A stretch of 47,532 nucleotides of DNA, from the IMG/VR virus record IMGVR_UViG_2690316161_000023, positions 1-47,532 of that record; one strand, written 5' to 3'. The notes under the pieces were generated by a model, which saw nothing but the letters and a program-made list of their open reading frames with translations, did no database searches and was not told the DNA's origin. Source of the stretch: a virus. Lineage: Duplodnaviria > Heunggongvirae > Uroviricota > Caudoviricetes. Made by a program: the position numbers and the translations under genes. Shown piece by piece: positions 32,265 to 35,700 of the stretch; the first letter of the stretch is position 1; the number at the start of each line of letters is the position of its first letter.

Positions 32265-32417
32265 TTACTCCTCAGGTTCGTAAGCTGTGAAGACAGCGAC
32301 CTCCGTCTGGCCGGTTCGGATTCGTACCTCGCAGAGGTCTTTCCTCGTTACCAGTGCCGTCACTATGACGGTTAAACAGATGACGATCAGGGCGACTAAC
32401 ATCGCCTTTTGCTGCTT
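32265..32417 (-). CDS. hokD: Hok-family type I toxin (HokD/RelF-like)
   Basis: 51 aa MKQQKAMLVALIVICLTVIVTALVTRKDLCEVRIRTGQTEVAVFTAYEPEE; the ORF call includes an in-frame upstream extension. Confidence 0.8.
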   Translation of the reverse strand, partial: KQQKAMLVALIVICLTVIVTALVTRKDLCEVRIRTGQTEVAVFTAYEPEE

Positions 32418-32520
32418 CATAGCCTGCTTCTCCTTGACCTTTCGGTCCGTAAGAGGCAATCTATATGTGACGAGCATATAGGGGCCTCACTTCGATTTAT
32501 AGTCGGGTGGGGCTTTTATC
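32418..32520 (-). promoter_or_regulatory. hok 5' regulatory region (expected mok/sok-type control)
   Basis: By analogy with hok/sok loci; no promoter or antisense RNA was mapped here. Confidence 0.3.
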
Positions 32521-32824
32521 TATCTGCCGTTGGTGTTCATGCCCGAGGCAGACAGCCTCAAGCACCCGCAGCTATTCTACTTAACTATCCTTTTCCCGCA
32601 AATCGTTTTATCCTCAACGCAAATTTCACCAATCCTCCTCCAACTCGTGTCCCTTACCCTAAGGCTGTTTCCCTCTTTACACAGAAGATAATTAATGTAT
32701 TATTTTTTACAAACAATCAGTTAAGAGCTATCTGTGGGTGGAGTCGCCTTGCGGTAGCTTTTCCTTTTATGCATTGCACACATACATGCTCTAATATATT
32801 CCTATATGTTCAAAAGGACTTTTC

Positions 32825-33757
32825 ATGCACAGCGTTAACTTCTATTCATTCCGTGTGTTAACCCACAAGGGCAGCCGAACCAGCAAAAGACTAAACAACC
32901 TAGGTTTAAGCGATAAAAAAACAGCATATGAATTATTTGTTGAGTATTTTAATAGCTATAAAAACACACCTATTGAATTTGGTCTCTCGAAAACAAAGGT
33001 TTCTCTTGAACAACACACATCACTCACCTTTGATGCTCAAAACCAAGTAATATATGGATATGTAAAGGTTGGGAAATATGGTGAGAGCAGTGAAATAAAA
33101 GACGATAAACTTACTAAAATACGTTATACAACAACTATCAACGATGTAACTCTCAAACAGCGTTACATTTTAATATTTTTGCCAGACAATTTAGAAGAAG
33201 GGATTATAGCATTTCACGCTAATGACAATATTTCTGCTCGCAGCACACTCTCTGATGCATTACTAGACCACTTGAAAACAAAATATAAACTTGAAGCGAG
33301 AATCAATCCCCTTTGCCACAAAAAAATTCCCCAACACATCCTTGATTCAGAATTAAAACAAATAAAAGCCCAAGGTTACAAAGCACCAAAGGACATCACG
33401 GATTCATTCGGAAATAACAAAACAAACATCAAAACTGATTTGGTAATAAAAGCAAATCAAGGCGTATTTGGTAGTTTTAAAGACTTAAAAGACAAAAAAC
33501 TAGGAAATATAATAGAAATAATTGAAGATAAGTGTGACGCAATAAAAGTTAGTTTACAATTAGGCAATAGAACAGTCATTTTTAATTACGACACCATCTT
33601 AAGAAAAGGAATTTCTGCCGAATTAGATGATAACGACTTAAACATAAACGCATCTACAGGAATCCCCGATCTTAAAGCACTTCATGACACTGTTAAAATC
33701 ATTGCGAATGATATACTAAGTGAGTTACATAGTGGTAATGGGGGAGTAAAAATATGA
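32825..33757 (+). CDS. Unrecognised 310-aa protein, first gene of a low-GC two-gene module
   Basis: AT-rich ORF with RBS aaggac before the ATG; opposite strand to the surrounding early operon; overlaps the next gene by 4 bp. Confidence 0.6.
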   Translation: MHSVNFYSFRVLTHKGSRTSKRLNNLGLSDKKTAYELFVEYFNSYKNTPIEFGLSKTKVSLEQHTSLTFDAQNQVIYGYVKVGKYGESSEIKDDKLTKIRYTTTINDVTLKQRYILIFLPDNLEEGIIAFHANDNISARSTLSDALLDHLKTKYKLEARINPLCHKKIPQHILDSELKQIKAQGYKAPKDITDSFGNNKTNIKTDLVIKANQGVFGSFKDLKDKKLGNIIEIIEDKCDAIKVSLQLGNRTVIFNYDTILRKGISAELDDNDLNINASTGIPDLKALHDTVKIIANDILSELHSGNGGVKI

Positions 33758-34011
33758 ACAAGATTAACGTAATGAGTGTAATAAAAAAACATTACACAAC
33801 AATGTCGGATCAACGCGGAAATATTTTACTCGAAGACATCGCAATACACTTCATCATTCCTCTTACATTATCATTAATCATATGTTTTACCTATGGGATA
33901 ATGAAAACCTCTATCGCATCTGTTTTTGTTAACTTTGGAGCAATTACTACCGCACTATTAATGAGCGCGGTTATTATGATCTACGATCAAAAACAAAAAA
34001 ACTGTATTTAA
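33754..34011 (+). CDS. Small membrane protein (two predicted transmembrane helices), probably the 5' part of a longer frameshifted gene
   Basis: 85 aa with hydrophobic stretches IAIHFIIPLTLSLIICFTYGI and IASVFVNFGAITTALLMSAVIMIY; stop follows an A-run. Confidence 0.55.
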   Translation: MNKINVMSVIKKHYTTMSDQRGNILLEDIAIHFIIPLTLSLIICFTYGIMKTSIASVFVNFGAITTALLMSAVIMIYDQKQKNCI

Positions 34012-34309
34012 AATTTCAGACATTGAGGAAAACAACAAACCACGTTCAAATCTAATAATTTTAAATAATAATAAAACCGTATATGAGCAATTATGTCACA
34101 ATGTTTCTTATGCCATATTAACATCTGTAGCGTTAGTTATTTTTTCGGTTGCAATATATTTTCTCCCAGAACCCCCAAGTGAATTAAAAAAATGGTATTT
34201 CGCAACCCCTGCTTACATAATCAGTTATTTAGCATACTCATCCTTCTTTTTTACCGTAGTAACATTCTTGATGGTTATAAAAAGATTTAGCACAATATTA
34301 GATAGTTAA
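34001..34309 (+). other. Open +1-frame continuation encoding two more transmembrane helices, no start codon
   Basis: About 102 stop-free codons in AT-rich DNA (...YAILTSVALVIFSVAIYFL...YIISYLAYSSFFFTVVTFLMVI...); removing one A from the run at about 33995-34001 would fuse it to the 85-aa ORF. Confidence 0.5.
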
Positions 34310-34318
34310 ACAATGGAA

Positions 34319-34342
34319 CCGCCGCCCTTTCGGGCGGCTTCC
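34319..34342. repeat. GC-rich hairpin, copy 1
   Basis: gccgccc-tttc-gggcggc; near-identical hairpin at about 35384-35406. Confidence 0.5.
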
Positions 34343-34370
34343 TGATGTTCTAAGGGTGCAGAAATCCCTC

Positions 34371-34430
34371 CGGTTAAGGATTAAATTTTTAACAGAGCTA
34401 AATTTAATTATTCAGTTCTGGATTTTGTCG
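34371..34430. repeat. ~60-bp leader/promoter-like repeat, copy 1
   Basis: ccggttaaggattaaattttt...ttaattattcagttctggatt, about 80 percent identical to 35635-35700. Confidence 0.5.
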
Positions 34431-34821
34431 CCCTGCGTATCCGCGCTTTCGCGTTACGCTCAATCTGAATTAGCTTTTCTATATTTTTTCGCCTTTCCCG
34501 CTCCTCCTGACGCAAGAGCCTTACATCATCTGCCAGTCTGGTTTCTCTTTTCGCCACAGAGAGCATCCAGTCAAATGGTTCCACAACTGCACCGCAGATT
34601 TTACAGCGGACCTGACGCTCTTTTTCGTCAACCCGGACAGAGGCGTGATGACAATATGGTCTTTCCGATGGCTCATAAAGAAAATTAACCTGATTACGAG
34701 GGTCATCCTCTTTTACCGGAAATAAAACGATATTGCTTAACTCATCCTCTGGTTTTATTTCCATGCTCCTCTCCTTTGATGCGAATGCCAGCGGTAATTG
34801 AAGCCTGATAGCTAATTTCAC
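34408..34821 (-). CDS. Hypothetical protein with a putative zinc-ribbon
   Basis: 137-aa ORF with YCHH and CKIC motifs; likely true start at internal Met (MEIKPEDE) with RBS ggagaggag. Confidence 0.35.
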   Translation of the reverse strand: MKLAIRLQLPLAFASKERSMEIKPEDELSNIVLFPVKEDDPRNQVNFLYEPSERPYCHHASVRVDEKERQVRCKICGAVVEPFDWMLSVAKRETRLADDVRLLRQEERERRKNIEKLIQIERNAKARIRRATKSRTE

Positions 34822-34895: not shown

Positions 34896-35159
34896 TTAAC
34901 CCGCAGTGCTTTCAACTGATGAGGGGAACAAAATCTTTTCATCAAACCCTGCATTCATATCATGAACAGCAACACACCAATCCATCGACGAACGATTATC
35001 AAGAGCCTCCATGATTTCATCCATGCGGCGTAGGTCATACAGGTAAATGCTTTTATCGCCAATGGTGTAAAAGCCAATTTTTTTCGGTGATGGACAGCGA
35101 TCAAGAACTTCCTGTAATTCGTTCAACCATGCCCGTTCTTTTTTTGTCAAAGTTGCCAT
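34896..35159 (-). CDS. Small hypothetical protein
   Basis: Start taken at internal Met MATLTKKERAW of the 117-aa ORF, which otherwise overlaps the preceding gene. Confidence 0.3.
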   Translation of the reverse strand: MATLTKKERAWLNELQEVLDRCPSPKKIGFYTIGDKSIYLYDLRRMDEIMEALDNRSSMDWCVAVHDMNAGFDEKILFPSSVESTAG

Positions 35160-35160
35160 A

Positions 35161-35379
35161 TCAGTTTTCCTTATACGGATTAATTTTATTGTGCAGTGTG
35201 TTGAATGACGCCCATACCACGTCGTTATACAATTCAGTAACTGGCTCAATTATTTTCCCGATTGCCCAGACAAAAATTAGAGGGGATATCGGTATCATCA
35301 ATACGATAAACAGAATGAGAAACAAAAATTCTGTCGCCCTACTTTTTTGCGGATATTCTTTTCTGAATAATGTAGTCAT
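35161..35379 (-). CDS. Small membrane protein
   Basis: 72 aa with hydrophobic stretch FLFLILFIVLMIPISPLIFVWAIG; begins just after the GC-rich hairpin. Confidence 0.35.
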   Translation of the reverse strand: MTTLFRKEYPQKSRATEFLFLILFIVLMIPISPLIFVWAIGKIIEPVTELYNDVVWASFNTLHNKINPYKEN

Positions 35380-35411: not shown

Positions 35412-35624
35412 TTAATCGTTGTGGTAACTCATGGCTTCATTTGCAGCATCAACCGGATCAACCTCCCACCAGCAATAATTTGGTGCGTTTCCTTCAGGTG
35501 TCCACGGTTCCAATTCATTTTTTGCCACATTCTCGTCGCCAGTAATTTTAAAAATCTGCTCAGAGAATTTTTTCACCCACTCGTTATATTTTTCAGTGTT
35601 AATAATTTTCTGTGTATTTGACAT
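35412..35624 (-). CDS. Small hypothetical protein (cassette gene)
   Basis: 70-aa ORF with RBS ggaggt; flanked by repeat copy 2 upstream and hairpin copy 2 downstream. Confidence 0.4.
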   Translation of the reverse strand: MSNTQKIINTEKYNEWVKKFSEQIFKITGDENVAKNELEPWTPEGNAPNYCWWEVDPVDAANEAMSYHND

Positions 35625-35634
35625 AGATATACCT

Positions 35635-35700
35635 CCAGTTAAGGATTAAATTTTATTTACAGTGCTGAACTTAATTATTCAGATTTGGATTATGCTTTCT
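35635..35700. repeat. ~60-bp leader/promoter-like repeat, copy 2
   Basis: Matches 34371-34430. Confidence 0.5.

Follow-up and report, generated by a model that had tools for sequence, protein, structure and literature searches.

A candidate RexAB-type abortive-infection module with a frameshifted effector gene in a Rac-like lambdoid prophage of Escherichia coli

By analogy with known phage-exclusion pairs, two overlapping genes in the window, which is the whole stretch of 47,532 nucleotides analysed (IMG/VR record IMGVR_UViG_2690316161_000023), probably constitute a moron of a Rac-like lambdoid prophage that encodes a two-gene RexAB-type abortive-infection (phage-exclusion) system. A candidate role in abortive infection or defence had been proposed for these genes in an earlier note made from the sequence, and it is well founded given that protein B, the partner of protein A, is confidently a four-transmembrane (TM) protein and that the pair travels together on many mobile elements. 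The copy in the window is itself probably inactive because the effector gene, gene B, is frameshifted, unless the single extra A responsible is a homopolymer sequencing error.

Judged by its sequence, the host element of the window is a Rac-like lambdoid E. coli prophage; recE, recT, ralR, kil, ydaT and ydaV are found in matching order in its close E. coli relatives. With the Rac-like prophage of E. coli P4, which lacks the module, homology stops at 32589 and restarts at 34322, and hence the module is a discrete cassette of 1.73 kb (32590-34321, assigned to neither strand) that comprises a promoter region, gene A and gene B. Low GC content also marks the cassette, at 33.5% compared to 48.2% for the window, and in windows of 300 nt the values range from 0.30 to 0.36 over 32750-34400, with approximately 0.5 to either side; the genes had indeed been described as AT-richer than their neighbours. 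Both genes were correctly placed opposite to the early genes, as they are encoded on the plus strand and every flanking gene on the minus strand. The slot had also been described as a variable accessory one, and this was confirmed with the P4 prophage, which holds other genes between the two positions (L008:9109-10983), viz. a dATP/dGTP pyrophosphohydrolase gene and several small unknown genes. On these sequence comparisons, the stretch bounded by hokD and the DUF977/DUF1627 genes is a hotspot for cargo.

The hokD gene (32265-32477, minus strand; Pfam HOK_GEF match, E 1.7e-23) does adjoin the module, as the earlier note had pointed out, but it is separate from it. Together with its upstream region (to 32589), hokD is conserved in prophages without the module, which is a separate insert; a contribution of hok to the module is consequently ruled out by the cassette boundaries, and hokD is recognized as part of the conserved prophage backbone. 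The module is positioned in the nin-like region adjoining hok, a long way from the immunity region, and it runs against the early operon. A sigma-70-like promoter (TTTACA-16-TATTAT, 10/12; 32676-32703, plus strand) was identified by consensus scan inside the cassette, approximately 120 nt upstream of the start of gene A; it is a candidate only, as the regional count of such sites is no higher than in shuffled sequences. Directly 3' of gene B, a GC-rich hairpin (34315-34342, assigned to neither strand; RNA fold of -19 to -21 kcal/mol, z = -2.0) may serve as a terminator between the convergent genes. It was not flagged by a consensus terminator scan, and most of it (from 34322) is not cargo but prophage backbone, the stretch from 34322 onward being conserved in many lambdoid phages. 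Further along, a direct repeat of approximately 68 bp (81-90% identical; 34360-34427 and 35625-35694) flanks a segment of 1.27 kb with three small minus-strand open reading frames, 34408-34821 (weak zinc-ribbon match), 34896-35249 and 35412-35624. The EC11 prophage is without this segment, and one copy of the repeat runs directly into the DUF977 gene; the segment looks like a second cargo cassette that is swapped via its boundary repeats.

Gene A (32825-33757, plus strand), taken from the list of open reading frames, encodes the soluble protein of 310 amino acids with a predicted RexA-like fold that is proposed to function as a DNA-binding sensor. A Shine-Dalgarno-like AAGGA (32814-32818, plus strand) can be read 6 nt ahead of its ATG. 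The stop codon of gene A (TGA, 33755-33757) and the ATG of gene B share the 4-nt overlap ATGA (33754-33757), through which the two genes are translationally coupled. The module probably also has a promoter of its own and, with this and the coupling, it would be expressible from a repressed prophage. Gene B (33754-34309, plus strand), the gene for the proposed four-TM effector, was delineated by three-frame translation: its frame 0 (33754-34011) provides the N-terminal 85 amino acids, and the remainder lies in the +1 frame, which is open up to the stop codon at 34307-34309. Alignment of the DNA with that of E. coli EC11 and JNU, in which gene B is intact, together with a listing of indels, traced the frameshift to a poly-A run (33995-34001, plus strand) that is A7 in the window and A6 in both of these strains, the extra A cutting gene B after the second TM helix. 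The intact gene B of EC11 and JNU encodes 184 amino acids. The intact module of EC11 corresponds to WP_025492045 and WP_025492044, and the window gene B departs from that of EC11 by 4 nucleotides besides the extra A. This A generates a canonical -1 slippery heptamer, A_AAA_AAC (33993-33999, gene B frame 0). Ribosomal slippage by -1 on the heptamer was considered as a means to rescue gene B and rejected, because it would enter the wrong frame (giving a tail like that of cluster P0066) and the functional C-terminus requires +1.

At least 80% of the module is carried by 36 of 5,426 complete E. coli genomes, in two allele groups of approximately 98-99% and 76% nucleotide identity. Comparison of these two groups and Citrobacter gave dN/dS values of 0.04-0.06 for gene A and gene B alike, with synonymous sites saturated, and strong purifying selection acts on the two genes. 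Independent frameshifts recur in near-identical copies of the module. A near-identical allele (cluster P0066) has a -1 change in the A-run of gene B, E. coli 64EVA (L018:1355-1783) has an additional C (+1) in the third TM helix of gene B that leads to a product of 142 amino acids, and the 16 sequences of cluster P0027 have an additional A (+1) in the A7 run of gene A (33320-33326). These could reflect a costly effector that is lost repeatedly, a switch between on and off states, or errors of homopolymer sequencing or of assembly; the recurring lesions in gene B fit a costly effector. Mutants of rexBpp, the effector gene of the RexABpp system, come up as suppressors in Pseudomonas putida (PMC12894663).

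The AlphaFold model of protein A (pLDDT 72, pTM 0.71) consists of a confident N-terminal beta-rich globular domain (residues 1-165), an insert of four strands and short helices with pLDDT below 50 (residues 174-254), and a long C-terminal helix (residues 283-301). In lambda RexA, the globular domain is split in two (1-139 and 248-279) by a dimerisation domain (143-234). The predicted fold of protein A likewise presents a split globular domain around a dimerisation domain, with an RdgC/IML3-like topology. Protein A, modelled to be RexA-like in fold, is probably a homologue of RexA, albeit a very distant one. Its similarity to the fold of RdgC (PDB 2OWL) is much weaker than that to RexA; RdgC is a recombination-associated DNA-binding protein with a chromosomal housekeeping role and no membrane partner. 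The earlier note had likened the gene pair to RexA/RexB in arrangement alone. The gene layout does correspond, a RexA-fold gene being followed by a co-inherited four-TM gene as is typical of RexAB, but the likeness is not limited to layout in view of the predicted RexA-like fold of protein A.

The absence of a recognisable motif in the 310-amino-acid product, also pointed out earlier, applies only at the level of sequence. Neither protein A nor protein B matched any family of Pfam or NCBIfam, with none for Pfam RexA and RexB at E <= 1, and protein A as read from its sequence falls outside the Pfam RexA family (PF15969). In PHROGs, the two proteins belong only to families of unknown function, phrog_15676 and phrog_15250. 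Profile-HMM and structure searches had been suggested in the earlier note and, when conducted with the frame-corrected protein B included, they returned no named family and a RexA-like fold for protein A. A PADLOC-type scan, suggested along with them, did not lead to any defence family for either protein: PADLOC-DB v2.0.0, which includes Kiwa KwaA/KwaB, the PD-T4/PD-Lambda series and the PDC candidates, gave no family at E <= 10 with protein A, intact protein B, or the 76%-identity variants of both as queries. The claim that the proteins do not resemble Rex proteins in sequence was upheld as well, the only match being one to RexA of 11% probability with a deep profile. An hhalign comparison of shallow protein A profiles with a 23-sequence RexA alignment gave probabilities below 1%, and a profile of 164 sequences aligned residues 91-231 of protein A to residues 70-210 of RexA (E 0.0028). 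This match is colinear over 130 columns, and it pairs INPLCH of protein A with the IEPLMRG hinge of RexA, and VIK with VIKPK. HMM-to-sequence comparison of protein A with RexA produced approximately 5 bits, which is noise, and a search of PDB sequences with the protein A profile produced noise only (a dockerin-like stretch at E 0.5). Foldseek searches of BFVD with protein A recovered uncharacterised phage proteins of 277-322 amino acids (best E 4e-12); lambda RexA, or any entry named RexA, was absent from the best 50 matches.

That the second gene encodes a membrane protein had been recognized earlier, and the intact product of 184 amino acids is predicted to have four TM helices. In its AF2 model (pLDDT 88, pTM 0.82), four long helices follow a short one at the N-terminus, and hydropathy analysis placed the TM segments at residues 29-47, 58-76, 119-137 and 155-173. 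The basic N-terminus, the loop at residues 77-118 and the C-terminus are predicted to be located on one and the same side of the membrane. Two motifs are invariant, VNFGAITTALLM in the second TM helix and TF.M..KRF at the C-terminus, and both are still recognisable in the protein B partners of Pseudomonas and Acinetobacter. With RexB (PF15968), protein B gave a BLASTP E of 1.6, an hhalign probability of 0.2% and no Pfam match, while Foldseek searches of BFVD found nothing at E <= 0.001 and no RexB name among the best 50 rows. The only trait common to protein B and RexB is their four-TM architecture, and four-TM proteins are common.

At each of 15 independent loci (15/15) from two phyla, a homologous gene B comes directly after gene A. 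These loci include prophages of E. coli, Citrobacter and Serratia (the pair being co-directional with the early operon in the last of these), genomes of Brenneria and Modicisalibacter, a small-plasmid-like contig of Yersinia with ParA/ParG and ArdC, a conjugative element of Proteus with TraG/TraH, and plasmids of Acinetobacter and Clostridium. The mobilisable ColE-type plasmid EBP3064_p2 of Serratia (L010; 5746 bp) devotes approximately one quarter of its length to the pair and also carries RelE/ParE. Plasmids of approximately 5.4 kb that resemble EBP3064_p2 were observed in Klebsiella and Kluyvera. In the Pseudomonas filamentous phage PfAC16 (L013:412-1883), a pair with 24% (A) and 35% (B) identity is convergent with, and adjoins, the repressor gene, an arrangement that recalls the position of rexAB next to cI in lambda. 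Across loci, the identities of proteins A and B drop in step from 78/74% to approximately 24/25%, as would be expected of an obligate pair. Moreover, the best BFVD matches of protein A and of protein B come from one and the same uncultured siphovirus.

A word-indexed search yielded 37 clusters of protein A and 44 of protein B, all of them enterobacterial, and a search of species-representative genomes with the protein B alignment found four genomes. By exhaustive profile search, the superfamily of protein A was extended to 591 clusters at 50% identity, nearly all of 300-315 amino acids, and none of 10 members sampled had a significant Pfam match. The named members are from Enterobacteriaceae (at least three lineages), Aeromonas, Acinetobacter, Halomonas and its relatives, Glaesserella, and Vibrio cholerae, and they are annotated as 'hypothetical' throughout. 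The largest clusters, P0003 (361 sequences) and P0042 (398 sequences), are in Salmonella. Enterobacteriaceae, E. coli and Salmonella among them, have at least two more lineages of the superfamily that are only approximately 22% identical to the window protein A, namely the P0097 type (308 amino acids, 82 sequences) and the P0118 type (302 amino acids, 298 sequences).

Among the systems known, lambda RexA/RexB (PF15969/PF15968; RexA PDB 8TWQ) shows no match at the level of Pfam, and protein A has 310 amino acids compared to 279 for RexA. RexB has 144 amino acids, in contrast to the 184 of protein B with its N-terminal amphipathic helix and a TM2-TM3 loop of 40 residues. The rexAB genes of lambda are next to cI, whereas the window module is beside hok and not next to cI. 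Like lambda RexAB, the Rex-like pairs of actinobacteriophages, Sbash gp30/gp31 and CarolAnn gp44/gp43, comprise a soluble and a membrane protein encoded by a prophage; they abort infection by unrelated phages, and the RexA-like proteins of these pairs bind DNA non-specifically. Their soluble proteins are larger (337-372 amino acids) and their hosts are Gram-positive, the likeness to the window pair being one of description.

A closer counterpart by description is Sucellos (SclA/SclB), which was found as cassette 68 of the chromosomal integron of V. cholerae N16961; it is RexAB-like by structure and missed by Pfam domains (bioRxiv 10.1101/2024.07.02.601686). Sucellos requires both of its genes, has its own promoter and kills infected cells, SclB is a predicted pore-forming membrane protein, and homologues are reported to occur often in Salmonella prophages (bioRxiv 10.1101/2024.07.02.601686). 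The window module resembles this description in being a RexAB-like pair of two genes without Pfam match, and the largest clusters of its family are in Salmonella. Given these clusters, the window family may be the same as Sucellos, as compared by description, although it could also be a sister lineage or an unrelated one, and it is quite likely, on that same comparison, that the module is at least a member of the Sucellos family in the broad sense; the N16961 protein was not among the 30 superfamily clusters that were looked up.

The second counterpart, RexABpp, is encoded by PP_5643/PP_5644 of prophage P1 in P. putida; RexBpp is a four-TM protein of approximately 187 amino acids, and overexpression of its partner triggers membrane damage by RexBpp (PMC12894663). 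The HHpred link between PP_5643 and RexA, at a probability of 98% (PMC12894663), is far stronger than any obtained for protein A. As derived from primers, the N-terminus of RexBpp (MLIGQLANP) is unlike the conserved start of protein B (MNKIN), while that of PP_5643 (MHRTATFV), for which this end only is available, fits the pattern of the protein A superfamily. Scans for exact matches to primer-derived PP_5643 sequence, as a 25-mer in viral contigs and a 21-mer in genome and metagenome contigs, located no copy. By description, Sucellos, RexABpp and the window family are comparable in both protein sizes and layout. The label 'undescribed' applied to the module in the earlier note is therefore doubtful, since phage defence has been demonstrated by experiment for both of these RexAB-like systems that Pfam misses (bioRxiv 10.1101/2024.07.02.601686; PMC12894663). 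The module is best assigned to the RexAB-type class, as a member that is new, or newly recognised, and it is not something categorically new.

As a RexAB-type system, the module may be envisaged to function as follows. Protein A would form a dimer with a split fold like that of RexA and RdgC and, by analogy, bind DNA non-specifically. Upon infection by another phage, it would sense either an intermediate of replication or recombination, or a phage protein, and in turn activate protein B, the four-helix protein in the inner membrane. Protein B might then oligomerise into a pore, or otherwise breach the membrane barrier, and the collapse of membrane potential would lead to growth arrest and an aborted infection. 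Experimental demonstrations of such non-specific DNA binding, of activation of B by A with damage to the membrane, and of phage protection come from the relatives RexABpp and Sucellos.

Three other explanations were ranked as less likely than RexAB-type defence. The pair could be an addiction or stabilisation module in which protein A restrains a membrane toxin, protein B, and the mobile element is retained by killing those cells that lose it. Such a function would suit plasmids of 5.4-5.7 kb of the ColE type, on which the pair makes up a quarter of the sequence, as well as its location adjoining partition genes on plasmids, the hok toxin gene as its neighbour in the window, and the repeated frameshifts in gene B that suggest a costly or toxic product. 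Protein A, however, is far above the typical size of an antitoxin and has a DNA-clamp-like RexA fold, and the Serratia plasmid is already equipped with a RelE/ParE system. Moreover, in the two relatives that have been tested, A activates B and does not neutralise it, with phage defence as the phenotype. Addiction as the function of the pair is thus unlikely, although many defence systems also stabilise their carriers and the two roles are compatible.

Of still lower probability is that protein B alone functions in superinfection exclusion or envelope modification, for example by blocking the entry of DNA; the likeness of protein A to RexA would then reflect convergence or reuse of an alpha/beta fold, with no mechanism in common. 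It is also possible to imagine that protein A mainly serves the life cycle of its own prophage, with protein B as an accessory and exclusion absent or secondary. Lambda RexA does bias the CI/Cro bistable switch toward lytic growth independently of RexB (PMC11077077), and the PfAC16 pair directly adjoins a repressor gene. The same pair, though, also occurs where there is no lysis-lysogeny switch, namely on small plasmids and conjugative elements, A and B invariably come as a pair whose members diverge together, and the window module is distant from the immunity region; we regard this life-cycle role as very improbable. RexAB-type defence remains the preferred explanation. A more far-reaching proposal, which we advance only tentatively as it is rather doubtful, is that A and B form a large superfamily of at least 591 clusters in which a RexA-fold sensor is combined with an effector unrelated to RexB. 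This superfamily would stand apart from lambda RexAB and possibly, as compared by description, from Sucellos and RexABpp, and spread on prophages, ColE plasmids, conjugative elements, filamentous phages and plasmids of Firmicutes, with the effector repeatedly turned off by frameshift, either as a costly component or as a reversible switch.

The mechanism of RexAB has been an open question for approximately 70 years, and the family of lambda itself is a narrow one. A much broader set of pairs, each with a RexA fold and a four-TM protein, would provide comparative leverage on this mechanism, the sensor fold being retained while the membrane effector differs. In protein A, the conserved positions worth mutating are those of the NPL hinge motif and of the IK(P)K strand; in protein B, they are those of the invariant VNFGAITTALLM helix and of the KRF tail. 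Being invisible to Pfam, NCBIfam and PADLOC v2, the family goes unrecognised in genomes of E. coli, Salmonella, Klebsiella, Enterobacter and Acinetobacter, and this bears on the prediction of phage susceptibility and on phage therapy.
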